Assembly: GCA_030950485.1 (NCBI GenBank)
Contig: JAUZRK010000025.1
Location: 8,236-72,235 of the forward strand
Source: Candidatus Dojkabacteria bacterium
GTDB taxonomy: Bacteria > Patescibacteriota > Dojkabacteria > J137
Direction: 5' to 3'
DNA: 64,000 nt
Shown: piece after piece, positions 1,408 through 53,055 of the stretch
Layout: the number at the start of each line of letters is the position of its first letter
Position numbering within the stretch: position 1 is the stretch's first letter
Position numbers and translations under genes: made by a program
Notes under the pieces: model-generated
The model's database searches: none
What the model was told of the DNA's origin: nothing
The model's input: the letters and a program-made list of their open reading frames with translations, nothing else

Positions 1408-2025
1408 ATGGACTTAAATCTTGCCACAACTCCAATTGTCTTCGTCGACTTAGAAACAACAGGCAAATATCCAGATAAGGATAAAGTTATAGAGATAGGG
1501 ATTGTAAAAATTTTAAATTGGAAAGTAATAGAAAAATATTCAAAGATTGTAAATCCTGAGTTACAACTTTCTGATTTTACAACTTCATTTACTGGTATAA
1601 AACAAAGTGATGTAGATAATGCTCTAACTTTTAGTACCTTAATTCCAGAACTTAATAAGATTCTTTCTGACTCATTATTTATTACTTAAAATATAAACTT
1701 TGACTACGGTTTTATTACTAAGGAATTTGAAAGAGCTGGAGAAATATTTAGCTCACCTAAAGTAGATACTATAAAGATTACTAAATATTTTTATAAAAAC
1801 CTTTTAAACTATAAACTAGATACTCTATGTAGGCTAGCTGGAATAGAGATAGAAAGTAGACACAGAGCATATGACGATGCTTATGCGTTATTAGCGTTAT
1901 TAGAGTTATTAGAATTTTTACGAAGAGAAAAAGGTGAAGAAAAACTATTAAAAGCTATTGAGGAAAATATTATTATTCCTGAAAAAGTTAATAATCCTAT
2001 AGATGATCAACTTTCTCTACTTTAG
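1408..2025 (+). pseudogene. DnaQ-like DEDD 3'-5' exonuclease interrupted by in-frame TAA (1687-1689)
   Basis: Exo I motif FVDLETTG; same frame continues after TAA with NINFDYGFI (Exo II ..N..FD) and HRAYDDAYA (Exo III); the stop sits where the conserved H/Y of the (H/Y)NxxFD motif is expected. Confidence 0.75.
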
Positions 2026-2027
2026 CT

Positions 2028-3692
2028 CTACTCAAATAAATTTCTAGCAACCATTGTAGCCGGAATATCCAATCCTAATTTTGTTAAAAGCGTAGGTGCT
2101 ACATCAGCAAGCATTCCCATTTGCACCTCTCTAGCGCTATTTTTATCTTTCGTAATATAGATAATAGGGACAGGATTAACAGAGTGCTTGGTATCAACTC
2201 CTCCAGTTATAAGATTTATAAGCTCCTCTATATTTCCATGATCTGCAGTGATAATTGCTTCTCCCCCTGCATTTTGAATTTCTTTAACTGCTCTTTTTAA
2301 ACATTGATCTGCGACTTCTACAGCTTTGATGGAAGCTTGAAGGTTTCCTGTATGAGCAACCATATCAGTTAGTGCATAATTTACTAATATGAAATCATAT
2401 TTTTTACTTTTTATAGCTTTTACTAAATTATCTGTAATTTCATATGAACTCATTTCTGGCTTTTCATCATAAGTTTTAACTTCTCTTGGAGAAGGAACTT
2501 CTAACCTCTCCTCTCTTTCAAAGATATCTTTTTTTCTACAGTTAAAGAAATAAGTTACATGTGGATATTTTTCTGATTCTGCTAGTCTTAATTGTGATAA
2601 ACCTGCATCTGAAATTAATCTACCTAAGGAATCATCTACTGCTTGAGGAGGGGAAATTTGTTTTTCTGGAAATTGTAGCGTAGCTTTAAGTTCTTGATTA
2701 AAAAGTTCTTTTACCATTTCTGATTCACCACCCTTATCATCAACATCTTCTGTTGCTCTATTCATAACTATTCCTTTTTCATAGTTTGAAAAACCAGCAA
2801 AATATAGATTTTTAAATCTTGTTACCGGAAAACCATAAAAGTTTGGATCTTCAAATGCTTTACTTAATTGTACAGCCCTATCTCCTCTATAATTAAAAAA
2901 TATTAATGCATCCCCTTCTTTTACAGTAGCAGTTGGCATATCTTTTGAAGTGACTACATATGGCTCCAGATACTCATCCCAAACATTTTCTGAATATGAC
3001 ATTTCCACAGCTTTTCTCCAGTTATCTACCATTGTTCCTTTACCACTAACCAATAGATCATATGCAAGTTTGGTCCTATCCCATCTATCATCTCTATCCA
3101 TTGCATAGTATCTTCCGATAACGGATGCAATCTTACCAACACCTATCATTTTTGTTTTTGATTCAATTGCTTCTAGAAAGTCAGCAGCTTTCTGAGGTGC
3201 TGTATCTCTACCATCTGTAAAAGCATGTATAAATACCTTATCTCCTTTTATTTTCTCTCTCTTACAAAACTCTAAACATGCATAAAGATGTTGTATAGAA
3301 GAATGAACTCTACCATCACTAGCAACTCCCATAAAATGAATATCACCTTTATTTTGTCTTGCATGATCTATCGCCTCTAAAAAAATTTCATTCTTATAAA
3401 AAGCACCATCATCTATCTCCTTATCTATTTTTGCTATTTCTTGATATATTATTCTTCCAGCTCCTAGACTCATATGTCCGACTTCACTATTACCTGTTAC
3501 GCCCTTAGGTAGACCTACATAGTTACCTGATGCTTCTAGATATGTGTGTGGAAACTCTGGCCATAGGGAATCTAGGTAGCTTGTATTTGCTAAAGTCACT
3601 GCATTACCTTTATTAGGATCTGCAACTCCAAGCCCATCTAAGATAATTAATACTAAAGGTTTTGGTATATCACTTCGATTTATTGTCTGCAT
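2028..3692 (-). CDS. gpmI: 2,3-bisphosphoglycerate-independent phosphoglycerate mutase
   Basis: 554 aa; LVLIILDGLG, SEVGHMSLGAGR, TADHGN motifs typical of iPGM. Confidence 0.9.
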   Translation of the reverse strand: MQTINRSDIPKPLVLIILDGLGVADPNKGNAVTLANTSYLDSLWPEFPHTYLEASGNYVGLPKGVTGNSEVGHMSLGAGRIIYQEIAKIDKEIDDGAFYKNEIFLEAIDHARQNKGDIHFMGVASDGRVHSSIQHLYACLEFCKREKIKGDKVFIHAFTDGRDTAPQKAADFLEAIESKTKMIGVGKIASVIGRYYAMDRDDRWDRTKLAYDLLVSGKGTMVDNWRKAVEMSYSENVWDEYLEPYVVTSKDMPTATVKEGDALIFFNYRGDRAVQLSKAFEDPNFYGFPVTRFKNLYFAGFSNYEKGIVMNRATEDVDDKGGESEMVKELFNQELKATLQFPEKQISPPQAVDDSLGRLISDAGLSQLRLAESEKYPHVTYFFNCRKKDIFEREERLEVPSPREVKTYDEKPEMSSYEITDNLVKAIKSKKYDFILVNYALTDMVAHTGNLQASIKAVEVADQCLKRAVKEIQNAGGEAIITADHGNIEELINLITGGVDTKHSVNPVPIIYITKDKNSAREVQMGMLADVAPTLLTKLGLDIPATMVARNLFE

Positions 3693-3730
3693 AAAAAAGT
3701 ATACAGTTTTGGGATATAAGACACAAGAAG

Positions 3731-3766: not shown

Positions 3767-3794
3767 GTTTGAATTGGTTTGTTTGAAATTCAAT

Positions 3795-6034: not shown

Positions 6035-6048
6035 ACTTTTTTGATTTC

Positions 6049-6080: not shown

Positions 6081-6086
6081 CTTTAT

Positions 6087-6937
6087 TCATCGAATTGATT
6101 CTTTAAGTTCTGTAATAAACTTTTCTACTTTTTTAGGTATATAGGCTCCATGTCTTTTTACTAAGACCATTTCTCTAGTAATACTAATATCAACTACTTT
6201 AATTTGATCGCTATCAAATTCTCTTACTGTTTCAATTGGCAGTACACTAAAAGCAATATTTTTTTCGAGTAATTTTAAGGTCACATAGGGGGATGATGAA
6301 TTAATTACTCTTTTTCTAATTTTGAATTTATATGCTTGAAACTATTAGATGAGTAATTGTAAGTAATTGCTAAGTGGTCTTCTAGATCGATAAGATTTTT
6401 ATATTTAATTTTCTTATTAAGAACAAGGCAAAGTTTTTCTTCAATGAACTTTTCTATATGAAAGTTTTTTTCTAAAGCTGAGTAATCAAACGGTTTTGTA
6501 GTAATTGCAGCATCAATTAAGTTTGAACTTATCATTTGTAATAAGTTCGTAGTTGTATCAACATGTATAATTAGATCACTTTCTTTATTAGATAGTTCAT
6601 TTAAGTTGAATAACTGACAGTTTGCTGCAAAGTTTGCAATACTATCAATTAGCCCGATTCTAAAGCTAGACTTTAAGTTGGCTGAGATATCGCTAACTTC
6701 ATTCAACAAATTTTGATAATTAGATTCTACCTTTTTAAATTTATCGTAAATTAATTTACCAGCCTCTGTAAGCTCGAACTTTGTTCTCTTTTTGATTATC
6801 AGTTTTAATCCAAGATATTTTTCTAAGTCATTAATAGACATAGAAATAGCTGGCTGTGATATATGTAGTTTCTTAGCAGCTTTAGTATAAGATTTTTCTT
6901 CTACTACTTTTAAATATTTCTATAAATTATCAAACAT
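6087..6937 (-). pseudogene. LysR-family transcriptional regulator, disrupted (in-frame TAG at codon 6 plus break separating C-terminal 65 aa)
   Basis: Minus-strand translation from ATG 6937 gives MFDNL*KYLKVVEEKSYTKAAKKLHISQPAIS (LysR HTH) with TAG at 6920-6922 where conserved Leu is expected; substrate-binding domain in ORF 6305-6841; C-terminal LysR tail in separate ORF 6087-6284. Confidence 0.75.
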
Positions 6938-7030: not shown

Positions 7031-7954
7031 ATGAGTAATGACAAAATAAAAATTGCAATTGTCGGTTTAGGCAACTGTGCTTCATCATTAATCCAAGGTA
7101 TTGAATACTATAAAGATGCTAAGGATGATGAATTTATTCCAGGATTAATGCATACAAACTTTGGAGGATATCATATAAAAGATATTGAAGTTGTTTCAGC
7201 ATTTGATGTAAATTCTAATAAAGTAGGTAAAGATATCTCTGAAGCGATTTACGCTGAGCCAAACTGCACTACTATTTTTTCTCAAGTTCCAAAAAAAGGA
7301 GTTAAAGTTTCTATGGGACATAGACTTGATGGTGTTAATAAATATACTGAAGATGTAGTTCCAGTTTCTGACATGCCTGAAGTAGATGTGGTTAAAGTTC
7401 TTAAAGATTCAGGTGCTGAAATTTTAGTAAATTATCTTCCAGTTGGAAGTGAGATAGCAGCCAGATTTTATGCTCAAGCAGCAATTGATGCTGGTTGTGG
7501 TATGGTTAACTGTATTCCTGTATTTTTAGCTTCAACTAAAGAATGGTCAGATAAATTCGAAAAGGCTGGTTTACCAATTATCGGAGATGATATTAAATCA
7601 CAGGTTGGAGCCACTATTGTTCATAGAACTCTTACAAATCTGTACCTAGATAGAGGAATGAAGATACTTAAAACGTATCAACTAAATACTGGAGGTAATA
7701 CAGATTTCATGAACATGCTTGAAAGAGAACGACTTGAAAGTAAGAAGATTTCTAAGACTGAAGCAGTAACTTCAATTATCGAAGGACATAGAGATACTAT
7801 AGATCCAGAGAATGTTCATGTAGGGCCATCTGATTTTGTACCTTGGCAGAAAGACAATAAACTATGTTTCATTAGAATAGAAAGTAAACATTTCGGAGAT
7901 GTACCAACTTATATGGATGTTACTAAAAAAGTACTAGGTTTTTGTGTACTATGA
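7031..7954 (+). CDS. ino1: myo-inositol-1-phosphate synthase (bacterial/archaeal type), apparently C-terminally truncated by about 55 aa
   Basis: [50 protein letters not shown] match Ino1 closely; ORF ends about 20 aa after FGDVP whereas homologues continue about 75 aa; no continuation in other frames. Confidence 0.8.
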
Positions 7955-8316
7955 ACTACTGCTCCCTGTGTTGCTGCAATAAGCTCTAATGGCGTACATG
8001 TAAAACTATCTCCATTTATTCCATTAGGTGTATAGTAGGTTATCTTTCTAGCCTTATCCATTGGAACAATACCAGGCTCTCCTTCTCCTTCCAAAAGAAG
8101 ATCAGTGAAAATCTCAGATATTGTATCGCTATTGTAGGTACCTTGCGTTGCTGAACTTAGTTGTCCCTCTTTTTCTGTTACTTCTACTAAACTGTACTTC
8201 TCAACTAATGCATCATGAAATGAGGTAACCATACTTTGTAAAGTATTTCCTAACTGAGCTCCGTTTTGTTGTTCTAAATTAGTCTCTGTCTCTAATGCTC
8301 GTGATACTGGTGCCAT
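7909..8316 (-). CDS. hypothetical protein (convergent, overlaps 3' end of ino1 by 46 nt; may be spurious)
   Basis: 135-aa ORF, no recognised motif. Confidence 0.3.
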
Positions 8317-19611: not shown

Positions 19612-19811
19612 TTAGTATATAGTATTGTCAACTTGTGAAAACACAACATATTGTAGTTAACCAAATTTCATTGCACTACTAACATCTTAGATCTCGATAA
19701 TACTTATTGGGTAATTATTTGCGCCACGACGCAAATTTGACAATATTCAGAATTTTTGCGAGAATCTGGCAGACTCTACTGATAAAATCTTTACTTCTTA
19801 CTTATTAAAAT

Positions 19812-21679
19812 ATGTTAACTAAACTGCCCAGATACAGATCTAGTGATCTATATTCAATTATTCAGAGCAACAAATACAAGGTCGTAGGATTAATTTTGAC
19901 TGCATTTCTTGCAGTTTTTTTATTCTCAAATTTAGGTGGTAAAGAAAATAAGAGTAAGCAGGATAGAAAATAATTACTGCTGAAGAAGTATCAAAGTTCG
20001 TAAATTTAGAAGAAGGTAGAATTTCTGATGAAAGAAAATATACTCTAAGTTCTGCTGAACTTGATCAATATATAAGAGGAACTCAGGCAGTTGAATTGAA
20101 GAAATTAAAATATTCTGATAAAGATAAATTTGATAGTGTTGTAAATTACGTATCTGAAGATCAGATATTTGCAAGTAAGTATATTGACAAAAATGGAGGA
20201 ATGCTAAGTACAGATTTTATCAATGTAACATTTGAAGAGGATACAGTAAGCGAGCCTGTAATATTAACTTATCAAGTTATTAATGGAGAACCTAGTTCTT
20301 TAGGTAATAGTTTTGAGTTGACTGCTACAAACTTAGAAGGGGAAGAAGTAAATACGTTCAGCAAAGAAGTAATGATAAATGGAATACTGTGGATTTAAAA
20401 GCTGAAATAAGTGAAGAAGGTATAGTTATTGCTACTAATCACTTTACTGAATTTACTGTAAGTGAGACTTACCCTGTAGATTACCCAGTACCAGGGCCTG
20501 CTCCAACTCCCACTCCACCTGGAGAAGTAACACCTGAAGAAGAGGAATATATTTATAAAGATTGTACAACTTATTTTGTAGACGACTCGTATGCAGTTGA
20601 TGAAGATCCTGATGATGATATAGATAGAACACCATGTGTAATTGAGGGAAGTTCAAGTTTTGGTGGTAGCACAGATACAGTAGGTGCAATAGGAGGTTCA
20701 AGATATTCAATGTGGTTAGAACCTTTAGCTAGTTCTAAATATACTTGGCAACATGATTATAAAAATTTAAGTGGTACTTATAAGATTTTCGCTACAGTAC
20801 CTAATGTAGCTAGAGTCTTAAAATAATGATGAAGAGACAAATGACATTTACTATGTATTAGCAAATGTAACTTACCTTGTAAATTCTGCAGATGGTCTTG
20901 TCGAAGTCCCTATAGACCAAAAAGAGGTAGGTTTAGACAATGCTTTAGCTGAACTAGGCGAATTTAACTTTAGTGGAGAAGAAGGTGAAAATGTTTCTAT
21001 TGTATATTCATTTTTTGATAGTAGAGAGCTAGCTGATGATGAAATTGAAGCTGCAGAAGACAAATCAGTTGAAAATATAGCTGTAGCTTATGCTATATGT
21101 ATTACCTAAGAAGATGATTGTCCCGCTGGTCTAGGAGATGTTATACCTCCTACTATAGAGAATGTAGAAATAGGATTATACGATGGTAAAATGTATGTCA
21201 CCGCAACAATAACAGATAATAATGAGGTATCAACTGCAGTTCTATTTTTAAATGAAAAAATTGTACCTTTTGTAAGAATTGAAGGTGATCTATGGGGAGC
21301 GATTGGTGAATATGAAATAGGTTCTGACTTAGATTATCATATAGAAGCATATGATGCTTCTGGTAACACTGGTAAATGGTATCCAGATCGTGGTTATCCA
21401 ACTAGGGGTACAGAAAATACTTTATCAGGTATACCTGATTGGTCAGAATTTGTTGATATTGAACATTATGGAATGGTGATGAATGGTGTAGAAGATACGA
21501 CTAGCGACATGGTTAAGAGTTATGCAGGTGCTCATGAAAATTATACGTTTACTAATTTAGGTAATGGAAGTACTAAACTAGATATAAATGTAGATGTTGC
21601 TGAAGATTTTAAGAAAGATATGGAAGATTCTTGGCCAAAGGCTTTAGAGAAGTTAAAAGAAATTGCGGAGAGAGATTAA
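19812..21679 (+). pseudogene. large secreted protein gene broken into 5 segments (3 frameshifts and an in-frame TAA at 21107)
   Basis: Signal-anchor ORF 19812-19973, then protein-like reading continues in frame 2 (19967-20398), frame 1 (20389-20826), frame 2 (20825-21106) and after TAA 21107-21109 same frame to 21679. Confidence 0.6.
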
Positions 21680-21694: not shown

Positions 21695-22245
21695 ATGAGC
21701 AAAATTAAATTTTCAGCTTTTTCAGTATCTTTAGATGGATTTATGAAAATAAAGAAGGAGAAAAATGAATTGATAACGATTTTGCAATTTAATCCTTCGA
21801 AAATATAGGAGCGTGGATTATGGGAAGAAACATGTTTGGGCCAGTAAGAGGGGATTGGAAAGATGGGTCTTGGAAAGGCTGATGGGGAGAAAATCCACCA
21901 TATCATGCACCTGTTTATGTATTAACTAACTACCATCGTAAACCTTTGGAGTTGAAAGGTGGAACTACATTATATTTTGAAACTGAGGAAATTGAAGTTG
22001 CCCTAGGAAAAGCAAAACAATCAGCAAATGTTAGAGATATAAGAATTGGCCGAGGAGTTAGTACTATTAAACAATTTCTACAAGTGGGACTAATTGATGA
22101 AATGCACTTAGCAGTTTCTTCTGTCTTTCTTGGATCTGGAGAAAATTTGTATGAAGGAATTGATTTACCTAGCTTAGGGTTTCAAATTGAGAATGTTAAA
22201 CATGGCGAAAAAGCCACTCATGTTACTCTGATTAGACCTAATTAA
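21695..22245 (+). pseudogene. dihydrofolate reductase family (RibD C-terminal domain) protein, disrupted
   Basis: N-terminus MSKIKFSAFSVSLDGFM typical of RibD_C family ends at TAG 21806; C-terminal part (IMGRNMFGP...GGTTLYFETEEIEVALGKAK...LIDEMHLAVSSVFLGSGENLY) in another frame with in-frame TGA at 21880-21882; internal segment appears deleted. Confidence 0.7.
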
Positions 22246-22903: not shown

Positions 22904-23293
22904 ATGAGTAAAGATTTTAACCTAATACCTGGTAACGATAATGAATCAGGTAGTGATGAGCTACTAGCTGAAAAACTATCCATCCAATTAGGTGATTCTA
23001 TCAGACGTCAAATTAATTCAGATGAAATAAGCGCTACTAATCCAGACAATAGAGACTTTCTTGAATTACTAGGTCTTACTAATATAGATTATACTCAAAA
23101 ATACGAAGGCCAACTGACAATAGAATTAGATACGCAAAATACTGAGTTTCCAGCTGCACATTTACTAATTGAATATTATCTTAAACGAATTGATATTGAT
23201 GGTAAACCAACGGAAAATTATAGATTAACATTAGGAGCAACTCTATCCTATACTCTACCTGAGGGAGCGGCTAATTTTGTTGTTGGCAGTTAG
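22904..23293 (+). CDS. hypothetical protein
   Basis: 129-aa ORF. Confidence 0.35.
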   Translation: MSKDFNLIPGNDNESGSDELLAEKLSIQLGDSIRRQINSDEISATNPDNRDFLELLGLTNIDYTQKYEGQLTIELDTQNTEFPAAHLLIEYYLKRIDIDGKPTENYRLTLGATLSYTLPEGAANFVVGS

Positions 23294-23313
23294 ATATAGA
23301 TAAACTTTCACAG

Positions 23314-23736
23314 ATGATTGCTGGTAATAAAGATTTAGATGTAGTACCAGCTATACCTTGGTATACAAATCTTTTCGTATTAGATGATTCTAATGCAGAA
23401 ACTAATTACGTATTGTTAAAAGATCATGATTCAGTATTTCCTCCTGAAGAGGAGGACGAAAAGAGAAGAAGAGCAAATGAAGCTGCTAATCTAGCAAAAA
23501 AAGAGAATGATTTAACTATATTATTTGATGCCCTTAAAATGACAAAAGAACAAATTGATCAGGCTTTTGAGGAGCAATGGCTTGGCTCAGTTCTGATATT
23601 TAACGAGGGTGGTCGAATAGGTGCACTTATATATAATACGGATGAAGCAAGTACAGCCATCCAGCACCCAATAAAAATGAAACTAGGTACAATTTTGCGT
23701 TATCAAAAGAGATTGGTAAGTCAGGAGACTCTGTAA
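23314..23736 (+). CDS. hypothetical protein (a third open frame 23646-23928 without start codon follows; possibly one frameshifted gene)
   Basis: 140-aa ORF; adjacent ORFs in three different frames with 20-nt gaps or overlaps. Confidence 0.3.
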   Translation: MIAGNKDLDVVPAIPWYTNLFVLDDSNAETNYVLLKDHDSVFPPEEEDEKRRRANEAANLAKKENDLTILFDALKMTKEQIDQAFEEQWLGSVLIFNEGGRIGALIYNTDEASTAIQHPIKMKLGTILRYQKRLVSQETL

Positions 23737-29578: not shown

Positions 29579-30193
29579 TTGGGCAAAAGCAAAGAAAATG
29601 TAAAAGATGGAACTATATTCCAAATCAGAGATGCTGAAGCATTTGTTGATTTAAGAGAACAGCGAGGTAAAGTTATAATAGGCAACTCTTACTTAATTAT
29701 GATTATTGATAAAGAGAGTAAGAAGGAACTTATAGCTACAGAGAAGATCACAAATCATTTATTGGAAACTGTTGAGGAGGATTTGTACAAGAAAAATGAT
29801 AAAGTATCTGGATACATCTACCAGAAAACTCAGTTCGGACTTAAAGTTTGTTTCGATGAAAAATATAGTGGAGTTATATATGCTAACGAGATATTTAAAA
29901 ATTATAGAATCGGAGAGAAAGTTGATTTATACATTAAAGAAGTGCGCCCAGATTTAAAAGTTACTTTATCATTTCAACCTATAGGTTTCATAGCTGCAAT
30001 GGATGCAACGCAAGCTATTGTAATGGAGCGATTAAAGAGCGCGAATGGGTATTTAAGTGTTTCTGATAAGTCTTCACCAGAACTTATTAAAAAAGTTTTA
30101 GGTATTAGTAAGAAGAAATATAAAGACGCAATAGGAGGTCTTTATCGAGATAGAAAAATTCTTATAAAAGTAAACGGTATTGAACTCATATAA
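29579..30193 (+). CDS. CvfB/YitL-family S1-domain RNA-binding protein, N-terminally shortened (TTG start)
   Basis: C-terminal LSVSDKSSPELIKKVLGISKKKYKDAIGGLYRDRKILI matches CvfB winged-helix tail; only about 205 aa versus about 290, no room for first S1 domain between folD stop and this ORF. Confidence 0.6.
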   Translation: MGKSKENVKDGTIFQIRDAEAFVDLREQRGKVIIGNSYLIMIIDKESKKELIATEKITNHLLETVEEDLYKKNDKVSGYIYQKTQFGLKVCFDEKYSGVIYANEIFKNYRIGEKVDLYIKEVRPDLKVTLSFQPIGFIAAMDATQAIVMERLKSANGYLSVSDKSSPELIKKVLGISKKKYKDAIGGLYRDRKILIKVNGIELI

Positions 30194-35505: not shown

Positions 35506-35542
35506 TGATGAAAGGATTGAATTAGGAATGAATTTCAATTGA

Positions 35543-35794
35543 TTGGAATGGATAGGGACAGGTTTCAAACCTGTCCCGACAGTCCCGACTAATAAAAATC
35601 ACACATTATCAGAAATAATCCGTGCTCTAAAAACCTTCTCTTCTCGAAGAATAAGCAAGATCTCAAATTCGAAATTCTGCTAGCAGCGATCATTCCACGA
35701 TAGAATAATCAGAAGCGAAAATGAATATATTAGAATTAAAGACTATATTCAAAATAACCCACGAAATTTAAAAAATAATAAACCTAATGATTAA
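35543..35794 (+). mobile_element. IS200/IS605-like (COG1943 transposase IS200-like / RAYT-like) tnpA C-terminal remnant with W-to-amber nonsense codon
   Basis: Frame-2 translation ...NHTLSEIIRALKTFSSRRISKISNSKFC*QRSFHDRIIRSENEYIRIKDYIQNNPRNL matches the ...GAIIRAFKSATTKRIN...VWQRNYYEHIIRNEKELNRIREYIINNP C-terminus; TAG 35681-35683 replaces conserved Trp; N-terminal catalytic part missing. Confidence 0.7.
35554..35576. repeat. perfect hairpin GGGACAGGTTT-C-AAACCTGTCCC (IS200/REP-like end structure)
   Basis: 11-bp perfect inverted repeat immediately 5' of the tnpA remnant. Confidence 0.5.
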
Positions 35795-36321
35795 TATATA
35801 CTCATTCAATTTATTTATCTTGCCTAACCTGTCATTTATCTGTAGAATCCAACACTTAAATAATACCTATGTACGGAATAACAAATCACTGTAAAGACTG
35901 TTCACAAGATACTAAATGTCCACTAATTCACGCAATGAAGTCAACGAGAAAGCCTGAAAATTTGTAACAACTTTTAGATCAATTACCTGGAGATAGTTCT
36001 GCCAAAATTGACGCTGGTAATTACTCTGAACTAGACGATACTACTAAAGTATATTTTGAAAATATATTAGCTGCAGCTGGTTTAGATATTAAAGTAGGAC
36101 AGTTTTTCCAAGCAGTTATAGCTAGCGATATAGAAGGTACTGCTTGTTATGGAGAGGACGATACAGGTTGGCTAGTTGCTTTTGAAGAAGCTTAACTAAT
36201 TACTTCTAATATCAGAAAAGCTCATCTACTATAGAAATAAAAATCATGTATTTAGCAGTATTACTATGTTGCCGAACTTTACCACCGATGATATAATCAA
36301 TATAGATTATAAAATTTCAAT

Positions 36322-36528
36322 ATGGCTCTGAATGATGTAATGCAACCAGATGACAACGAAGGTGGTAAAGAACCTAGTTTGTTTGAGATTATGAAGGAGG
36401 ATGAATTTCTTGAAGAAGTTTTGGCTCCATTTTTACCAATTATAAAAATTGAGAACTCTGCACAAAGAGAGGCTGCAAATACGCTAACTTTTAAAAAGTA
36501 CTCCACCTACTCAGTAACCCCCAGTTAG
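36322..36528 (+). CDS. hypothetical protein (may be N-terminal part of a frameshifted gene continuing in 36519-36938)
   Basis: 68-aa ORF ending 8 nt before next ORF in another frame. Confidence 0.3.
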   Translation: MALNDVMQPDDNEGGKEPSLFEIMKEDEFLEEVLAPFLPIIKIENSAQREAANTLTFKKYSTYSVTPS

Positions 36529-36536
36529 TACTTGAG

Positions 36537-36938
36537 GTGTTGAAAGATGAGGGGCTACAAAATTTCATACAAAACTTAGCTGTTTACGCTGATTCAGATA
36601 TTGAAGAAAAAAGAGGTGTTCCCCCTTATGAAACTCTAGAGTATGTTGCAAATGCATTAAATAACCATAGACAGAAACTAGTAAATCAAGCAAAAGTGCT
36701 AATTAGAACTGCAAGAAACGAAACTAGAGAATTATTAGTTGAAAAAAGACTTAGAAATGTAGATAATCAACAATTTTGTATTACAATACCATATGACTCT
36801 ATAGCAGAAGTAAATACAGTTTTTCTTTCAGAAGAAGATGCTCTAATTATAATTGCTGCTGGTATTAGATTAAGAGAATTAGGAGTAAAGCTATCGACAG
36901 AGACAATACACCACGAAACTCTACAAACAAACAAATAA
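36537..36938 (+). CDS. hypothetical protein (GTG start; frame open from 36519)
   Basis: 133-aa ORF. Confidence 0.35.
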   Translation: MLKDEGLQNFIQNLAVYADSDIEEKRGVPPYETLEYVANALNNHRQKLVNQAKVLIRTARNETRELLVEKRLRNVDNQQFCITIPYDSIAEVNTVFLSEEDALIIIAAGIRLRELGVKLSTETIHHETLQTNK

Positions 36939-36967
36939 CTACGAGACTTTTCAATGAAGAAGAAACA

Positions 36968-37222
36968 ATGGAGCTAAACGAAGATGAAAAAGAAGCAAGG
37001 TTATCAAGATTTGTAGCAATTAGACTAAAAACATTGTTTATGGTTTATAAATATACTGATCCCGAAATCTTTAATATCTCTCAAAGAGATGAAGAAGAGT
37101 ATAATACAGGTAATATTGACTTTACTGTAGATGAAGGAATGCATAAAATTTTAATGATTGGGTACAATAAGGATCTTTTTGATAGATGGCAAGATGGAGA
37201 TGAAATTGACGAATTAATTTAG
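36968..37222 (+). CDS. hypothetical protein
   Basis: 84-aa ORF. Confidence 0.3.
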   Translation: MELNEDEKEARLSRFVAIRLKTLFMVYKYTDPEIFNISQRDEEEYNTGNIDFTVDEGMHKILMIGYNKDLFDRWQDGDEIDELI

Positions 37223-37233
37223 TCTTGAGAGAA

Positions 37234-37959
37234 TTATTTATTGACAAAGTTCATAGCTCCTAGATCTGCTATTCTCTGAGCCTTTTGAAACAATACCTTA
37301 ATTTCTTCTTCATGTGAAATTAAACCTTGTTGACTAATGTGATTAGTACCAAAGAAATGAATAGTGTCTTCATTAATTAAGCCATATGACCATGAATGAC
37401 TACTCTCTTTATCCCCTAGATAAATAGTTGCCCTAATAGGTTGTCTAAATCGATTTCTAGCATAACTAAAGCCTATTGCAACTGAATAATTGCCATCTTT
37501 TGTCAAACCAATTCCTAAAGCCATAGGCAAATTATATTCTATGGGAGGAATAGGTAATTCTTCAGACGATTTAAAATTAAGCGAAGATTGGTTTATTGAT
37601 GGTTTTGTCGGACTAATTTCATGCAATGTATTTATTGAATAGCCTTTTATATCTCTTCCGCAATTACCATTCAGTGGATCTACTATTAGTATATTTTCTG
37701 AAAAATCTACTGGAGATGGTAGTTCAGGTAGTTTACCTGATAAATCAATTACAAAGTAAGCGTGACTTGCACCCTCCATAGAAAAATGAACTGAACTTGG
37801 CCCACCTACAAAAAAGAATCTAGCATTAGGATTACTTTGTTTTATATCAACTAATATATTATTATCTACCATTTCTGAAATATACCTCTGAGTAAGTCCA
37901 CTACATTGTCCTGCAGTTCTCTTATCGTTATTACTGTAAAATTCATCTATATGAATCAC
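37234..37959 (-). CDS. hypothetical protein with CHAP/papain-like GQCSG motif; probable frameshifted N-terminal extension (59-aa ORF 37966-38145)
   Basis: 241 aa, GTG start; upstream 59-aa ORF MDYIEDKNFGGMREL... ends where this frame opens. Confidence 0.4.
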   Translation of the reverse strand: MIHIDEFYSNNDKRTAGQCSGLTQRYISEMVDNNILVDIKQSNPNARFFFVGGPSSVHFSMEGASHAYFVIDLSGKLPELPSPVDFSENILIVDPLNGNCGRDIKGYSINTLHEISPTKPSINQSSLNFKSSEELPIPPIEYNLPMALGIGLTKDGNYSVAIGFSYARNRFRQPIRATIYLGDKESSHSWSYGLINEDTIHFFGTNHISQQGLISHEEEIKVLFQKAQRIADLGAMNFVNK

Positions 37960-38404
37960 AGGGGGAGCTTGCTCTGCTATTACAATGGAATGAAAATGTT
38001 ACCTTTTAACATCCCGTCTAAGTTTCCATCAGCATTTCTATATATTTGATGATATTCAATTGCTCTATCATGCATAGCTCTCATTGTGACTGAGTCAATT
38101 CCTAAATCTTTTCTGAGTTCTCTCATTCCTCCAAAGTTCTTATCTTCAATATAGTCCATTACTTGTACTAATAATAAGTTTGTAATTATAGATGACAGTA
38201 TATAATTTTGTAAATCAATTACCTTTTATTTATAATCACTTTAAACGCTTAAGTAAAAAGTACCTATTATTTTTTGACTAAGGTTTTTTTTTCAACAACT
38301 GCAGGACCTAGAGATTTCTCTTTCTCCTAAAATAATTTCATAATTCGTACTATAATGTTTCGCCGGCTTATACCTGCATATTGTATTTAATAATACCTAT
38401 ATAA

Positions 38405-39997
38405 ATGAGAAAATTATTAAAAAAATGGGAGCCTCTGATAATCATAAGTCTTGCGCTCTTTGTTGTAATAATCGACACAACAATAATTAACGTTTCAATT
38501 ACAGACGTTGTAAAAGATCTAGATACAGATATTGCAAGTATGCAGTGGGTTATTACTATTTACGCGCTTATTATGGCAGCTCTTCTAATTGTAGGAGGTA
38601 AACTTGGAGATATTTACGGAAGGAAGAGAATGTTTATGATAGGAAAGTTTACATACGGTGTTGGAACTTTTATAGCGTCTTTAAGTCAAAACCTGTTTAC
38701 ATTATTAATTGGATGGTCAATATTAGAAGGAATTGGAGGTGCATTAATAATGCCTGCTTCTCAAGCTCTATTAACTGACAATTATAAAGGAAGTGATAGA
38801 TCTATAGCTTTTGGTGTTTGGGGTGCAATAGCTGGTATAACTGTTGCTTTCGGTCCTATTGCAGGAGGATACCTAACTGCAAATGCAAGTTAGAGATGGG
38901 CATTTGCACTCGAACTAATAATAGTATTCTTAGTTCTTGCCTTCTCTACTAGATTAAAAGAGATTTATGTAAGAAGAGATATTAAATTAGACATTGTAGG
39001 TTCCGTACTTTCAATCTTAGGATTAGGTTTTCTAGTTTTAGAAGCGAGAGAATACGGATGGTTAAAAGCTAAAAAGGCTTATGAATTATTCGGAACTACT
39101 ATAAACTTGGGAGATTTATCTATTGCACCAGTTTTTATATCAATCGGTATATTACTAACTTCACTAATGGTGCTTTGGTTATATAAAAGAGAGGGAGGAG
39201 GAAAAGATACACTTTTCAGTCCTAAGATCTTTAAATTTAAAGACTTTGACTTTAGTCTAGCTACCATATTTATAGTTTTAATACCAATGTCTGGAATGAT
39301 GTTTACTCTACCAGTTTTCTGGCAATCAGTAAGACATTATGATGCATTCGAAACTGGTTTGACATTCTTGCCTTATTCAATAACTCTTTTCTTAATAGCT
39401 CCTTCTATGGGTAAGCTTGCATCAAAAGTTTCACCAAAATATATAATTCAAAGTGGAATTGTATTATCAATGGTAGGACTATGGTTAATGCACGATAGTT
39501 TCACTGTAGATTCAACTTGGAAAAGTGCAGCACTAAGTATTGGAGTTTATGGAGCTGGTATAGCAATGGTATTTTCACAAATCCAAAACTACTTACTATC
39601 TACAGTTGATAAAAAATATGTAGGTGAAGCTTCTGGGTTAAACTCAGCAGTTAGACAATTAGGAAGTGCCTTAGGTACTACAATTTTAGGAACAGTATTT
39701 TTAAGTATTGTCACTAGCACAATGACTACAAATATTAATGAAAGTGATATTCTTTCAAATGATATAAAAACAGAACTTATTCAAAGTGTTCAAGCAAGCA
39801 GCGGTTTCGGTGAAAGAAACAATAGTCAGGAAACTGAATTACCCGAATCTATTTCTAGTGAGATAGAAACTTTAAGTAATGAATCTATTTTGGAATCATT
39901 AAAAGATACTTTTTTAATAGGAATAGGAGTAACTGCAATATCACTTCTAGTAAGTTTTGGACTTCCAAAGAAGTTAGAAGAGGAAATCGAGGGATAA
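38405..39997 (+). pseudogene. MFS transporter, DHA2 (EmrB/QacA-like) family, interrupted by in-frame TAG at 38891-38893
   Basis: ORF 38405-38893 ends ...GGYLTANAS* and same frame continues RWAFALELII...; in DHA2 proteins this region reads GG(W/Y)LT..xSWRWIFLIN, so TAG replaces the conserved Trp; downstream ORF 39107-39997 carries TM7-14. Confidence 0.75.
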
Positions 39998-40020
39998 TAT
40001 TTTTTAAGAAAATAAACTAT

Positions 40021-40599: not shown

Positions 40600-40735
40600 A
40601 AGAGTCTTAGGTGAAAACCTCAGTACTCTTACATCTAGTACTTAGACAAATACATAAACTTAGCACTATGGGATATAGTCTGGATTTCTTTAAAACTTAG
40701 CTAGAAGTTCAATACATGCAGTTTATGTTAGATTC

Positions 40736-42553
40736 TTAGCTAGCAATCTCTAACCACTTATTAGTTTTTAACTCCAACTCACTTTCCAACTCTTTTACCT
40801 TAATAGAGATTTTTTCAATTTTTTCAAAATCATCACCTAAATTGAACATCTTATTCTTAAGATCTTCTAGTTTATCCTCTATTCTTTTAATTTCTTTAAG
40901 TATTACCTTTTTCTCATCACTCTCAGACTTCTTAACTACAGCTACCTTAGGCGTCGGATCTTTTGGTTTATCAGAACCCTTTTTATTTATAAAATCACTA
41001 TAGTTTCCGGGAAAAACATCAATCTCACCATCACCTTTGAATACTAAAAGATGATCTACAGTTGTATCAATAAAATATCTGTCGTGAGAAACTATAATTA
41101 CACAACCCTTAAAGTTAATTAAAAATTCTTCTAAAACTTCTAAAGTCATTAAATCAAAATCATTTGTCGGTTCATCAAGAATCAAAAAATTTGGATTATT
41201 CATTAATACCTTTAATAAAGCTACTCTCTTTCTCTCACCTCCACTTAAATCTTCTATTTTAGTTCTTTGAATAGTTCCACTAAATAAAAACCTTTCAAGC
41301 ATTTTTCCAGCACTTATAAATTTTCCATCAGATAGTTTTATTTCAGAAGCTACTTCATTTATTGAATCTATAATTGTTAGATTTGGGTTTAGTTCTTCTT
41401 GGTGTTGAGAATAGTAACCAAAATTTACAGTTTCTCCTTTAACTATCTTTCCGCCATCAATTTCCTTTTTACCTAAAATAAGATCTAAAAATGTAGATTT
41501 ACCTGCTCCATTTTCACCAATTATTCCAATTCTTGAACCTTTTTCAAAAGTATAAGTAAATTTATCTAGAATTTTCTTTTCCCCAAAGCTTTTAGATACA
41601 TTATGTAGTTCTAGTATTTTTGAACCTAATCTATCTGAGACAACGTCTAGACTTACTTTATCAACAGTATTTTTTGAACCTAAATTTTCCCTTGCTAGCT
41701 GATTATCTCTAATCCTCGCGCCATCTTTTGATTGTCTTCCCTGTGGCTGCTTACTAATTATTTCATACTCTCTTTTTAAATAAGTTCTCGTCTTATCTAT
41801 ATTAATATTTTCATCTAATCTTCTTTTTTCTCTGTATTCTAGATATTGTGTATAGTTTCCAATATGTTTATAGAGTTGCCCTCGGTCTAGCTCTAAAATT
41901 GTATTACAAACTTTATCTAAAAAGTAACGATCGTGAGTTACTAATAGGATTGAAGCTTCTAAATTTCTCAGATAATTCCCTAGCCATTCAATCATTTCAA
42001 TATCTAAATGATTAGTAGGCTCATCTAGTAATAAAACATCTGCTTCATCTAGTAAAATTTTAACTAAAGCTAACCTTTTCTTCTGACCTCCAGAAAAGCT
42101 CGATATCTTTTCATCTCTATAGTCGCTTAACTTTAATCTCTCTAAAACTTCACTAACTACATTCTCATATTCCCAAGCATTCAACCTATTCATTTCATTC
42201 ATTGCAAGTTCCAATCTCTTTGGATCATTTATATCTTGTATAGCTTCCTCATATTCACTTACTGCCTTTAGAAATTTTGAACCTGTATTTCTTAACTCTT
42301 CATTTAAAGTATTGTTATCCTCAAGATCTGGGTTTTGTGAAAGATATGAAATGTGAATTCCATTCTGTGTAGTAATATCTCCTTTGTCGTACTCTATTAC
42401 ACCTGCTAGAATTTTTAAAATAGTAGATTTACCTTTTCCATTTTCTGCAACAAGTGCAATTTTCTCATTCTTTGCAATTGAGAAGTTTATATTCTCAAAT
42501 AGATTTCTACTTAAAATATCCTTTTTTAAATTTTCAACAACTATATAACTCAT
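40736..42553 (-). CDS. ABC-F family ATPase (two ABC domains, C-terminal coiled coil; EttA/Uup-like)
   Basis: Two Walker A (GKGKST, GAGKST), two LSGG signatures, no TM domain. Confidence 0.85.
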   Translation of the reverse strand: MSYIVVENLKKDILSRNLFENINFSIAKNEKIALVAENGKGKSTILKILAGVIEYDKGDITTQNGIHISYLSQNPDLEDNNTLNEELRNTGSKFLKAVSEYEEAIQDINDPKRLELAMNEMNRLNAWEYENVVSEVLERLKLSDYRDEKISSFSGGQKKRLALVKILLDEADVLLLDEPTNHLDIEMIEWLGNYLRNLEASILLVTHDRYFLDKVCNTILELDRGQLYKHIGNYTQYLEYREKRRLDENINIDKTRTYLKREYEIISKQPQGRQSKDGARIRDNQLARENLGSKNTVDKVSLDVVSDRLGSKILELHNVSKSFGEKKILDKFTYTFEKGSRIGIIGENGAGKSTFLDLILGKKEIDGGKIVKGETVNFGYYSQHQEELNPNLTIIDSINEVASEIKLSDGKFISAGKMLERFLFSGTIQRTKIEDLSGGERKRVALLKVLMNNPNFLILDEPTNDFDLMTLEVLEEFLINFKGCVIIVSHDRYFIDTTVDHLLVFKGDGEIDVFPGNYSDFINKKGSDKPKDPTPKVAVVKKSESDEKKVILKEIKRIEDKLEDLKNKMFNLGDDFEKIEKISIKVKELESELELKTNKWLEIAS

Positions 42554-42613: not shown

Positions 42614-43854
42614 TTAAGCATTATTTCCTGAAATATATCCGCTCGCCCAACAAATTTGTAAACTATAACCGCCAGAAGGTCTATCAATATTTAAAAGATC
42701 CCCTGTTATAAAAAGCTTAGGAACTTTTCTAGACTCCATAGTTTTAAAATTTACTTCATCTATATTTACTCCACCAGATGATACTACAGCTTTATTAGCA
42801 CCAAGTAGATTTTGAACATTTAACTCTATTGACTTAAATAAATTTAATAAACTCATTCTTTCTATTTTTGTAACACTATGATTAGATTTATCAGGATCTA
42901 TATTAGCTTGTTTTAAAAAAGGTTTAACAAGTGCTGGCTGAATGATTCTAGTTAAACTATTCTTTATTTTTTTATTACTATCTTCACTTAAAATACTATA
43001 AAGAGTCTCTTTCATAGATTTTGGATCTATATCGGGAAACAAGTCTAATTTTATAGTCACATCTCCTTCTTTTAACAGATCACCAACTCTACTACTCATG
43101 TTTAATACGGCAGGTCCACTTATTCCAAAGTGAGTAAATAAGAATTTGCCTCTAGTTCCAAAGTTTTTTTTCCATAGCTATAAACATTTAAACCTACATC
43201 AGCAAAACTTAACCCAGGAAGAGATTTAATCCACTCTGTTTTTATTGCTATTGGAACTAAAGCTAAAGAACTATCTATAATCGTATGTCCCAAATCTTCT
43301 AACCATTTAAACCCATCTCCGGTCGAACCAGTTTCTGGCCTAGATTTACCACCAACTGCAAGAATTAATGATTTGGATTTAAATGATCCATTATTTGTAT
43401 TAATTATAAATAAATCATTATTTTTCTGTACTGATATTACTGAAGAATTATTCATTATTTCAACATTATTATTACTTATATAATCTTGAAGCACTTGCCA
43501 GACAGAAACTGCACTATCTGATACTGGGAAAACTCTATCTTCAGCTTCTACTTTAGTTTCCATACCTCTTGAGTTAAAGAAATCTAACGTATCACCAGCT
43601 CCAAATTGAGAAAAGAGCGAATACAATGCTTTAGGTTTATCCTTATAGCTAGAAACTAGCAGATTAAAATCTAGCTTATTATTAGTAACGTTACATCTTC
43701 CACCTCCTGTAATTAAAAGTTTTTCTCCTAATCTATTGTTCTTTTCAAGAAGTAATGTAGTTTTACCCAGTTCTGCAGAACGACCTGCTGCAGTCATACC
43801 CGCAGGACCTCCTCCAACAACAATTGTATCCCAAACTTTATTTTCTAAATTCAA
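42614..43854 (-). pseudogene. HI0933/YhiN-family FAD flavoprotein with frameshift in poly(A)8 tract
   Basis: N-terminal VVGGGPAGMTAAGRSAE FAD motif (ORF 43120-43854); canonical GKFLFTHFGISGPAVLN continues in ORF 42614-43099 frame; shift maps to T8/A8 run at 43164-43171; one extra A restores frame. Confidence 0.7.
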
Positions 43855-43942: not shown

Positions 43943-44236
43943 ATGTCTGTTGATTTAGATTCTATAGGTAGTGATACTGAAATGTACCCAGATTATAACT
44001 TTACAAATGAGGATCCACAACAAGGTGGGAAAATTAGGGAGGCTGTAGAGCTACAGAAACAAGCTAGTTTGGAGATAATAGAAAACGGAGGAGTACCTAC
44101 TATATTCTTTGTAGGAAGCATGATATATAGAGGAGCTGAATACGTTTCAGCTGTAAATGAAGTGTTTGGGAAAGATATAGCCAGTATGTTCTGTTTTATC
44201 CAAATGGATATAACTTCATCAGATTTTAATAGGTGA
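43943..44236 (+). CDS. hypothetical protein
   Basis: 97-aa ORF. Confidence 0.3.
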   Translation: MSVDLDSIGSDTEMYPDYNFTNEDPQQGGKIREAVELQKQASLEIIENGGVPTIFFVGSMIYRGAEYVSAVNEVFGKDIASMFCFIQMDITSSDFNR

Positions 44237-44387
44237 AATAGATCTTGATAATATTGAAATTACACTAGAGCAAGTCTATAGTCTAGAAGAATATAGAGAC
44301 ATCGCAATTGTTCTTGCTAATAAAGATAAAGTCAAAAATGCTGTAAATTATTATAGAGAGCGGACTAGTTTTAGTAATTCAGATATT

Positions 44388-44651
44388 ATGACTTGGAGAG
44401 TAAATTTATTGGAGTTAGATGAATATGATCCTGCACTTACTGAATTAAAACAAGACATTCGCCTACCTGTAATAATTGATACCTCAAATATTAGCGAAGA
44501 TATTTATCTAGGTAGTGAAGAAGGTACTTTAAGATTTGTAAAGGGAGTAAGTATTTTACGTAAATTAAGTCCCAAATCTGTTATACATAACTACTCAAAA
44601 GGTCTTAGAAATGGTTCATTAGGATGGAATTATTTACAAGAAAAGCTATAA
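44388..44651 (+). CDS. hypothetical protein
   Basis: 87-aa ORF. Confidence 0.3.
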   Translation: MTWRVNLLELDEYDPALTELKQDIRLPVIIDTSNISEDIYLGSEEGTLRFVKGVSILRKLSPKSVIHNYSKGLRNGSLGWNYLQEKL

Positions 44652-46218: not shown

Positions 46219-46848
46219 ATGGAAATTCAACTCAATAGGGTTCAATTAAAAAAGTATTTTTTTTCGCTATTACTTCTTTTATTTTTCTTATAAATTATTC
46301 TATATAGATCTTCAGTAAATAATAAAGATGTAGCTAGTGGCAATCTAGATCTTTTAAATATCGCAAAAACTAATTGTCTACCAGCATTTAGAGATGGAGG
46401 AGGACCTTATTACCTCCCTAATCAGCCATTTAGAACTAACATTGCTGAAGGAAAAACCGAAGGTGAAAAACTAATAGTTGAAGGTTATCTATTAGATAGT
46501 GATTGTAGTAGTCAAATTAAAAATGCAGTAATAGATATTTGGCAAGCTAGTGCGGAAGGTGAATATGAAGATGAATTTTATCGAGGTCAGATTAAAACTG
46601 ATAAGAATGGATACTATAAATTTGAGACAGTAATGCCTGTAGGTTATGGAGAAGGTACAGCCTATAGACCTCCACACATTCATTTTAAAGTCTTTATTGA
46701 TAATAAAGAAATTGTAACTTCTCAAATGTTCTTTTCTGATGTAGAGGGTAGAGATGGCTTTAATGATGAATACATTATTAATGTTAAGAAGGCAGATAAG
46801 ATTTTAAAAGGAAACTATAATATAGTTCTTCCTGACTATAATAAATAA
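46219..46848 (+). pseudogene. secreted intradiol ring-cleavage dioxygenase-like protein with in-frame TAA in signal peptide (46291-46293)
   Basis: ATG 46219 then MEIQLNRVQLKKYFFSLLLLLFFL*IILY...; downstream same frame has intradiol dioxygenase core (EGYLLDSDC..IDIWQASAEGEY..RGQIKTDKNGYYKFETVMPVGY..RPPHIHFKV); no start codon after the stop until Met 46633. Confidence 0.7.
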
Positions 46849-48492: not shown

Positions 48493-49260
48493 ATGTCTTT
48501 AGATAGCTTTAATCCCGATTCTCCTCACGAAGGAGTAACAACTCATGTAACAGGTACTTCTAAGAGTGATGTAAATGGAGTCGCACATGCGGAAACTATA
48601 GTTGGAGATGGTCTACTTTCGCCAAATAAGTATTGTATATCGTCATCCATTCCATTTACTGCTTTTTTGGGAAATAGGAATAGCAGATTATTAGCTTATA
48701 AAACAAATACTAAGCCTCAAGAAGAATTTACTAGACTTGAAGGAGGCCATGAATACGCAACAGAATCAAACAATAGAATTCCATATTCAAAAGTAAAAGC
48801 TTAACACCATGCAGCAGCTGCCTACTATCAAGATCACCATAACAGTTTTCCTATAGAGAATGACTGGAATTACTTTCCACCAGATGATCTTATGTTCTAT
48901 GTAGATATGACACCTGAAGGATCTGCAAGTTTTAGCTCTATTACAGAAGAAATGATAACTGAATTTAGAGAAGGAGAGATACTTGAAACTACTCTACTTA
49001 CAAGAACTGAGCAATTATTTGTAAATACACCAATTTATAATTCTAAAAAAGAGGAAATATCTGGAAAAGATAAGCGAGCAGCTCTAATGAGTTACACTGC
49101 TGCAGTATCGTATCATTCTTTGTTAATAGAGATTTCTAAAGTAGATTTAAAAACTGCTACACAACAAGATATACAAAGAATTGCGGATATTCAAACAGAA
49201 TATCCTGCAAGCTACAAAGCACAGCAAGAATTCTTGAGTAAATTTATATTCGAAGCCTAG
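48493..49260 (+). CDS. hypothetical protein; two ORFs in the same frame separated by a single TAA at 48802-48804 (possible nonsense-disrupted gene)
   Basis: ORF 48493-48804 and ORF 48892-49260 share a frame; the frame stays open between them except for one TAA. Confidence 0.3.
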
Positions 49261-52233: not shown

Positions 52234-52446
52234 AGTAAATTCTTGTATAAAATGAGCATTCTAGATAAAGCAGTAGCAGACATTGGTGATTCAGCAACAT
52301 AATTTGCAAGAGATCTAGTAAGAGCTGCTGGGTTTAGTAAGTATGGAGAATACTACGTAGGAACTACAGTAGATGGTATCCCAATATTTGATAGACCACT
52401 AACAACAGAGAGTAGTAAGAATGATGATAATAGCTACTCTAACACT

Positions 52447-53055
52447 ATGCCCTCTTCAGCCAAATTACCCAAATCTCTAATTCAGTTAAACTCAAATTCA
52501 GTTCCTGAAATGCTAGACCCTAAAATCCATGGTGTCCTAACTATAGAAGAAATACTGAATAATCCAGAAGTTGTTGCAGTAGATATTGCGTGCGGTTTTG
52601 GTAGAGCTATGACAGAAGCTGCTTTAAAATATCCAGCCTCATTCATAGGATTGGACCTAAACTTAAGTATAGAAAACGATAGCAACAGCGTACTTACAAA
52701 AAGAATTGAGAATTTGCCTAAAAATCTAGCTTTAGTTCAGGGAAATTGGTCAAATTTACCTATTAAAACAAATTCTACTGATGTAATCTTTAATGTAGAA
52801 GGAGCAGGGGCTTGGCTAAGAACTGATGCTGCTCAAGTCGCAAGTGAACTTACTAGAATAGCGAAACCTGGATGCGTTATATATGGAACAGAGAGGGCCA
52901 AGGATGGAACTAAAAACTATGTCGAAGTTGTAGCAAATACTATTCTAAATGATGAGCTTACTAGATTAGGTTTGACTAAATATTTATTTTATACCGGCGA
53001 TATCGATGTAGATAAGTTTAATGTCTATTTTCCTGTTTGGGTATATAACGTCTGA
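52447..53055 (+). CDS. class I SAM-dependent methyltransferase (frame open upstream to ATG 52252 but interrupted by TAA 52300-52302)
   Basis: Motif I VVAVDIACGFGRA; in-frame upstream sequence MSILDKAVADIGDSAT*FARDLV... suggests either N-terminal truncation by nonsense mutation or use of Met 52447. Confidence 0.55.
   Translation: MPSSAKLPKSLIQLNSNSVPEMLDPKIHGVLTIEEILNNPEVVAVDIACGFGRAMTEAALKYPASFIGLDLNLSIENDSNSVLTKRIENLPKNLALVQGNWSNLPIKTNSTDVIFNVEGAGAWLRTDAAQVASELTRIAKPGCVIYGTERAKDGTKNYVEVVANTILNDELTRLGLTKYLFYTGDIDVDKFNVYFPVWVYNV

Follow-up and report, generated by a model that had tools for sequence, protein, structure and literature searches.

A 64-kb stretch of a contig from a member of Candidatus Dojkabacteria (hereafter the window, meaning the whole of the DNA that was analyzed) carries a dense set of interrupted, frameshifted and truncated genes lying among intact housekeeping genes, and we consider it probable that most of these lesions mark genuine pseudogenes at different stages of decay. 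Among the roughly 67 loci of the window, nine are broken on the evidence of homology, with Pfam, NCBIfam or PDB alignments that span the lesion or end at it; about 12 are probably broken, and 15 is the most that can be counted (Table 1). The source organism is an ultra-small bacterium of the Candidate Phyla Radiation (CPR)/Patescibacteria, known only from metagenomes. Its TypA protein shares 77-78% identity with proteins of Candidatus Dojkabacteria and candidate division WS6, and the proteins encoded in the window, matched by exact sequence, have been deposited as NCBI entries MDQ69860xx, encoded on a contig of 72,404 bp.

Density and distribution of the lesions

Intact open reading frames (ORFs) account for 70% of the bases in the window and broken loci for up to 21%; in CPR genomes pseudogenes are few and the median coding density is about 89% (PMC9166423). 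A mechanical count of junctions at which same-strand open frames abut without room for a start codon gave 10 in the window against a baseline of 1.5 per 64 kb, drawn from 870 kb of low-GC related metagenome and genome loci, an excess of about 7-fold. The lesions comprise eight nonsense substitutions and four truncations or deletions that remove about 50 to 500 codons, in addition to frameshifts. Point lesions, 19 in all, fall within 13 loci and are clustered beyond what random placement would give (P = 0.03); such piling up in the same genes is to be expected, since genes that are already dead should gather more.

The selectivity described in an earlier reading made from the sequence alone is borne out. 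By NCBIfam, full-length copies are present of gpmI, pyk, pth, glyA, folD, typA, gatC and two ABC-F genes. What is broken serves accessory roles and comprises a regulator, an efflux pump, a dioxygenase and two reductases, along with inositol-phosphate synthesis, a spare exonuclease, Tex, a transposase remnant, and lineage-specific surface or orphan proteins. Eight of the nine lesions that the sequence-only reading had named are real, the ninth, in a CvfB-like gene, being a misreading of a conserved short protein.

That reading had gone on to propose active reductive evolution in a recently host-restricted or symbiotic lineage; taken to the entire genome, this would be a state like that of Mycobacterium leprae or Sodalis. 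The proportion of broken loci (about 15-22%), the low fraction of intact coding sequence, the mixture of decay stages and the contrast between broken accessory genes and intact housekeeping genes all favor such a view, as does the scarcity of pseudogenes that is normal in CPR genomes (PMC9166423). We nevertheless regard it as doubtful, for it extrapolates from one 64-kb window in which the lesions are gathered in five patches (at 1.4-8, 19.6-23.9, 34.9-39, 42.6-44.7 and 46.2-49.3 kb) separated by long clean intervals, and the clean condition extends into the 8 kb upstream. No proliferation of insertion sequences (IS) or repeats accompanies the lesions: a search of the window found one degraded transposase fragment and, apart from tRNA and ABC motifs, no family of repeats. 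The GC content (30.6%) equals that of the closest relatives (30-32%) and is thus no peculiarity of this genome, and the group that includes this lineage is already reduced and presumably symbiotic. Ordinary turnover among accessory or island genes fits the observations equally well.

Table 1. Coordinates of the broken loci in the window, and of the short CvfB-like gene that had been taken for one
Locus	Coordinates	Strand	Lesion or status
DnaQ-like DEDDh 3'-5' exonuclease pseudogene	1408..2025	+	lone in-frame TAA 1687-1689
LysR-family regulator pseudogene	6087..6937	-	TAG at codon 6 (6920-6922) and frameshift within 6305-6341
Myo-inositol-1-phosphate synthase (MIPS), lacking about 60 C-terminal residues	7031..7954	+	homology stops near 7922
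Orphan membrane-anchored or surface protein gene, five abutting pieces	19809..21679	+	three frame changes and in-frame TAA 21107-21109; probable pseudogene
RibD_C (dihydrofolate reductase-family reductase) pseudogene	21695..22245	+	TAA 21790-21792, TGA 21880-21882, frame change, about 50 residues deleted
Two orphan ORFs (129 and 140 aa), different frames	22904..23736	+	ambiguous: frameshift or two neighboring genes
CvfB-like S1/winged-helix protein, short form, intact	29579..30193	+	not a lesion
Tex remnant: Tex_N and start of central region (Pfam), 200 of about 705 codons	34903..35505	+	truncated
REP-associated tyrosine transposase (RAYT, IS200-like Y1) fragment	35543..35790	+	5'-truncated; TAG 35681-35683
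Orphan coding-like fragments, three frames	35968..37222	+	pieces 35968-36195, 36313-36528, 36495-36938, 36869-37222; probable pseudogene
Orphan ORF pair, different frames, 19-nt overlap	37234..38225	-	ambiguous
DHA2-type major facilitator superfamily (MFS) transporter pseudogene	38405..39997	+	lone TAG 38891-38893
HI0933-like FAD flavoprotein	42614..43854	-	1-nt frameshift at A8 run (T8 at 43164-43171 of the plus strand)
Orphan gene	43943..44651	+	probable frameshift within 44214-44236; codon score switches near 44220; probable pseudogene
Intradiol dioxygenase (Dioxygenase_C) pseudogene	46219..46848	+	TAA 46291-46293 in hydrophobic leader
Orphan ORF pair	48493..49260	+	split by in-frame TAA 48802-48804; possible nonsense lesion

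Genes interrupted by in-frame stops

Apart from the transposase fragment treated below, five genes with recognizable homologues are interrupted by stops within otherwise readable coding sequence. In the DnaQ-like exonuclease gene, the match to the Pfam RNase_T model (positions 1-164) continues across the single TAA, which lines up with the His of the HNxxFD motif in three solved exonucleases (the T. maritima PolC exonuclease, DinG and PolC), as had been proposed for the H/Y position of that motif; starting from a His codon, this stop requires two steps. In the MFS transporter gene, the Pfam MFS_1 match likewise runs across the TAG, the alignment spans residues 15-508 of QacA, and the stop lies opposite the Trp of the QacA segment SWHSAF, in agreement with its earlier placement at a Trp. 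The dioxygenase gene is halted 24 codons into its hydrophobic leader, the signal peptide of the earlier description, and beyond the stop no ATG, GTG or TTG start yields an ORF of at least 80 aa.

The two remaining genes have been hit more than once. HTH_1 and LysR_substrate domains appear in the LysR-family gene only once its two frames are joined. Its TAG is real, but alignment with BenM and OxyR shows that the assignment of this stop to a conserved Leu, with a TTG to TAG change, was off by one: it stands one residue past that Leu, at a variable position occupied by Arg in BenM and Tyr in OxyR. The RibD_C gene combines the TGA and the internal deletion that had been attributed to a gene of the dihydrofolate reductase family. 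It retains only positions 71-190 of the RibD_C model, aligning with residues 113-230 of PDB 3kgy; a three-frame reading places its N-terminal 28 codons in a different frame, and its TGA falls within WKG*WGENPP.

The stop lesions have no evident sequence motif in common. Base changes can be deduced in three instances, all at Trp codons (TGG to TAG twice and TGG to TGA once). These offer weak support for the AT-biased mutational spectrum that had been suggested, from which the supposed LysR change must be withdrawn, having been read in the wrong register.

Truncated genes and the short CvfB-like protein

The MIPS gene encodes 307 aa, which align with the 367-aa M. tuberculosis Ino1 across its residues 14-304 (E 6e-104; 350 bits, 294 residues), and no remnant of the missing C-terminus occurs in any frame at the locus. 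The loss of this end had been recognized from the sequence alone, as had the cutting of Tex at 200 aa. The MIPS sequence is very close to M. tuberculosis Ino1, yet its GC content is at the local 30%; it is a gene of actinobacterial type that has long resided in a CPR genome, and may give a clue to a host or donor lineage. An orphan ORF of 135 aa at 7909-8316 on the minus strand, with good codon usage, converges with the truncated MIPS gene and overlaps its 3' end; it matches no Pfam family and has no homologue.

Tex is retained as a Pfam Tex_N domain followed by positions 17-58 of the 178-position Tex_central_region. Elsewhere the protein is 705-740 aa long in 20 of the 24 related contigs checked, and three of the other four copies end at a contig edge. 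Downstream, the sequence described earlier as an IS200 tnpA gene with a stop does contain the TAG, in the reading FC*QRSFHDRIIR, but the gene is the 5'-truncated remnant of a RAYT. Positions 67-131 of 146 in NCBIfam model NF047646 are matched (E 3e-8; 33.6 bits, where the cut-off is 80 bits). Pfam Y1_Tnp gives a weak match (E 0.012 for positions 59-121 of 121), and a PDB search gave no match. Members of the family are defined by an HUH motif together with a C-terminal catalytic Tyr region; the N-terminal HUH half is absent from this fragment, which is a transposase gene remnant. The Tex remnant closes with three consecutive TGA stops just 5' of the RAYT remnant (35505-35543). Since Tex stops where the RAYT remnant starts, both truncations could have come from one deletion of about 1.7 kb.

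The CvfB-like gene, in contrast, is not a lesion. Its 204-aa product, with two S1-like domains and a winged helix, aligns with residues 156-285 of 3GO5 and lacks the first S1 domain of S. pneumoniae CvfB, so that it departs from the family description of three S1-like domains plus a winged helix in about 280 aa. However, most of its nearest homologues in an exhaustive HMMER search are themselves 210-226 aa long and align end to end. The full CvfB of about 280 aa is found in Firmicutes, compared with 210-226 aa in the close homologues of the window protein. Truncation was rejected on the equal length of these closest homologues, and the architecture identifies the protein as a conserved short variant.

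Recurrence of the lesions in a sibling assembly

A second metagenome-assembled genome (MAG) of the same population, GCA_030949735.1 (JAUZSD01), carries the region on at least five contigs (L083-L086 and L167 in our numbering), and about 50 kb of the window could be compared with it as assembled consensus sequence. Identity over this length is 99.7-99.9%, with 72 differences, mostly 1-nt indels and clustered. Every window lesion recurs in the sibling base for base, and no lesion private to the window was found in the sequence compared. The sequences of the DnaQ-like gene and of the orphan locus at 19.8 kb are the same in both; so are the LysR stop and frameshift, the HI0933 break with its fragment proteins, the 307-aa MIPS product and the 162-aa N-terminal MFS fragment. 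The Tex fragment is 200 aa long in each. None of the 72 private differences of the sibling coincides with or repairs a window lesion. Most of them instead break genes that are intact in the window, including TypA (in three pieces), a Kef-type antiporter, YibE/F, an ATP-grasp protein and both ABC-F proteins, while two are intergenic and nine lie inside window-broken loci away from their lesions.

These private differences identify the sibling as a low-coverage, long-read-like consensus with random errors, because two of its contigs (14 and 23), left unmerged, share 1.8 kb (window 39565-41362) and differ in their private errors within the overlap. Contig breaks also differ between the window assembly and the sibling, which argues that they are separate assembly runs, and presumably they stem from independent libraries. 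Random errors cannot recur base for base; the shared lesions must therefore lie in the DNA or be systematic errors. Throughout its contigs JAUZSD010000006, 14, 22 and 23, the sibling shows clustered 1-nt indels along with A/G substitutions, and its gene-content annotation is untrustworthy.

The notion that the lesions are for the most part consensus errors left in an error-prone, long-read assembly of the metagenome, the genes being intact in the organism, draws on exactly this material: a sibling of the same population with many indels, TypA in pieces, and overlapping contigs at odds with one another. It draws also on the HI0933 break, a 1-nt deficit in a poly-A run at which one added A restores the protein, and on the fact that no window-intact gene has an A/T run of 9 or more, so that the undercall rate there is unbounded. 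We find this notion quite unlikely. Against it stand the sharing of all window lesions, with none of the private differences coinciding, and the kinds of lesion themselves: base-calling cannot yield truncations and deletions of about 50 to 500 codons, the repeat search found no mobile-element copies that would account for misassembly at the truncations, and the nonsense substitutions lack an evident common context. Only one of about 11 frameshift junctions (HI0933, A8) falls at a run of 7 or more, and the intact genes contain 35 in-frame A/T runs of that length; homopolymer error as a general cause was rejected on the junction contexts and this homopolymer census, and systematic error is plausible only at the HI0933 site. 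Furthermore, the lesions spare housekeeping genes and the sibling errors do not. Private differences of the sibling hit housekeeping genes in 23 of 72 cases, compared with none of 23 shared lesions (Fisher P = 7e-4); counted per locus, the figures are none of 15 loci and nine of 35 clusters (P = 0.04).

The HI0933 flavoprotein gene

The one homopolymer-associated frameshift of the window divides an HI0933-like gene. Both halves match an intact 410-aa orthologue in a syntenic relative (L082), and addition of one A, converting A8 to A9, gives a colinear protein of 413 aa with 58% identity to that orthologue. The same relative shares with the window the gene arrangement ABC-F, HI0933, ABC-F, TypA. 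At the A8/A9 site a base may have been missed in sequencing, the gene may have been knocked out very recently, or transcriptional slippage may take place.

Slippage, whereby HI0933 would still be expressed through correction of the poly-A frameshift in part of its transcripts, would account for a gene that has a single lesion, is one base short in A8, remains colinear elsewhere with its orthologue, and is broken identically in both MAGs. Tamas et al. 2008 are said to have described poly(A)-tract frameshifts rescued in this way in Buchnera and Blochmannia. HI0933 resembles those cases in that its sole break is a 1-nt change in the length of an A8/A9 tract of an AT-rich genome. It differs in being one case known from DNA sequence alone, and an undercall explains it equally well; since either an undercall or a very recent knockout predicts the same pattern, we give slippage only a slim chance.

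Recoding of the stops

That the in-frame stops are read through or recoded (by an alternative code, a suppressor tRNA, selenocysteine or pyrrolysine) can be set aside almost entirely: three stops do fall at Trp positions, and some CPR lineages use code 25, but TAA, TAG and TGA all occur in-frame, at His, Trp and variable positions, all three terminate intact ORFs (TAA 30, TAG 13 and TGA 8), long housekeeping genes are free of internal stops, tRNA scans found no suppressor tRNA in the window, and LysR, RibD_C and RAYT carry frameshifts or deletions besides their stops. Reassignment was rejected on these terminators and the lack of a suppressor tRNA. Both escapes that the sequence-only reading had foreseen, consensus error and recoding, thus run counter to what the sibling MAG and the terminators show.

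Orphan loci

Six of the 15 broken loci are orphans: they yielded no Pfam family above curated cut-off, no homologue among 5.8 billion proteins, and none by tblastn in all of the related loci that were fetched. Three are probable pseudogenes. At 19.8 kb, stop-to-stop ORFs abut without spacing, and the codon-usage score changes frame at every junction, the frame changes falling at about 19967-19973, 20317-20398 and 20822-20826. Near 36 kb, overlapping open frames are accompanied by a codon-usage score that switches among them. In the orphan gene beginning at 43943, the downstream frame is open for 58 codons ahead of its first start codon. In the pair beginning at 22904, an ATG that could start the second ORF lies 21 nt past the stop of the first.

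Together these loci hold about 6.5 kb of coding-like sequence without a detectable homologue (19809-21679, 22904-23736, 35968-38225, 43943-44651 and 48493-49260), and the orphan content of the window is high even by CPR standards.

Weight of the evidence and course of the probable decay

Several considerations weigh against reading the window as a record of decay, or against extending that reading beyond it. Identification of the six orphans as broken depends on frame continuity and codon usage, and the pairs at 22904, 37234 and 48493 could be adjacent small genes. The statistics for housekeeping avoidance and for clustering are modest per locus (P about 0.03-0.04). The two libraries may not be independent, the data of the project are indel-prone, and some room is left for systematic errors common to both assemblies; the HI0933 A8/A9 site is exactly of the type expected from systematic homopolymer error. 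Finally, the 8 kb upstream of the window, seen on a sibling contig, contains no obvious broken genes, and the density of breaks may be local to this region.

Genuine pseudogenization nonetheless remains our preferred explanation for most of the lesions. The lesions and their recurrence are matters of observation, from which we infer a cause, a timing and a possible extent. The sequence of events would be one of ordinary gene loss, in which selection is relaxed on regulators, transporters and catabolic enzymes that can be dispensed with and on surface proteins specific to the lineage. Such genes would accumulate small indels, deletions and nonsense mutations, some of the last being GC-to-AT changes at Trp codons, and purifying selection would hold genes of translation, glycolysis and C1 metabolism intact. 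Genes with a single hit are probably recent casualties (the DnaQ-like exonuclease, the MFS transporter and the dioxygenase, which HI0933 may join). An earlier onset is probable for the genes hit several times, namely LysR, RibD_C, the surface-protein gene at 19.8 kb and the fragments at 36 kb, and deletions would have left the remnants of MIPS and, jointly, of Tex and RAYT.

A bolder proposal is that this Dojkabacteria population is passing through a burst of inactivation in which at least 15% of loci are dead or dying genome-wide, making it the first clearly pseudogene-rich member of the CPR, a radiation whose genomes are regarded as compact and long since streamlined. We offer it tentatively and think it more apt to fail than to hold; were it true, a recent shift in host, niche or population size would be indicated, and loss of the DnaQ-like, proofreading-type exonuclease could have contributed as a mutator lesion. 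Should the decay be real and extend across the genome, the CPR would not uniformly have reached a stable, streamlined end-point, and its genomes could still pass through pseudogene-rich phases, which would bear on how and when episymbionts lose functions and on the trust to be placed in metabolic reconstructions from MAGs. Two practical points can be added. Public MAGs of the same population differ greatly in indel error, as the three pieces of TypA in GCA_030949735.1 illustrate, and automated annotation lists fragments as genes, such as an "MFS transporter" of 162 aa and an "inositol-3-phosphate synthase" of 307 aa.

Other genes of the window

The Rfam content of the window consists of five ordinary tRNAs and nothing more. 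One of the intact ABC-F genes (40736-42553) encodes an EttA-like protein whose top matches in a genome collection, from Saccharibacteria and Dojkabacteria, reach only 49-51% identity, further matches being to many Bacteroidota at 39-45%. Two tandem paralogues of about 370 aa each, both intact, occupy 26033-27151 and 27178-28260; the first gave a weak DUF3419 match by scan, and for the second a DUF3419 match comes from the precomputed annotation of the sibling MAG. A 512-aa polytopic membrane protein without a Pfam match is encoded on the minus strand at 57370-58908, where the codon-usage score locally prefers the opposite strand; this probably reflects a hydrophobic, AT-rich composition and not a lesion.

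Relation to known systems

Pseudogene-rich reductive genomes are familiar from Mycobacterium leprae, Sodalis glossinidius, Serratia symbiotica and recently host-restricted pathogens. The window resembles the M. leprae and Sodalis type in its nonsense, frameshift and deletion lesions in regulators, transporters and catabolic genes amid an intact core, in its mixed stages of decay and in its lowered coding density. It differs in that the lineage is an already-small member of the CPR, seen here through one window, with no IS expansion and with a GC content like that of its relatives.

A second comparison is with the "extinction dynamics" view attributed to Kuo and Ochman, in which pseudogenes of accessory or horizontally acquired genes reportedly turn over routinely in free-living bacteria. 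The broken genes of the window are similarly dispensable or lineage-specific and patchily distributed, many are orphans, and several carry single recent hits. Their density is different, however, at 15 of 67 loci and 21% of bases where a few per cent would be usual, and the junctions are about 7-fold commoner than in comparable contigs.

Pseudogenization as such is a well-known phenomenon, and what is unusual here is the CPR lineage in which it is found. In taxonomy, low GC, abundance of orphan proteins and possession of a short-form CvfB, the organism is a typical member of the CPR/Patescibacteria; it departs from that type in the 70% of the window that is intact coding sequence, in a group where the median is about 89% and pseudogenes are few (PMC9166423).

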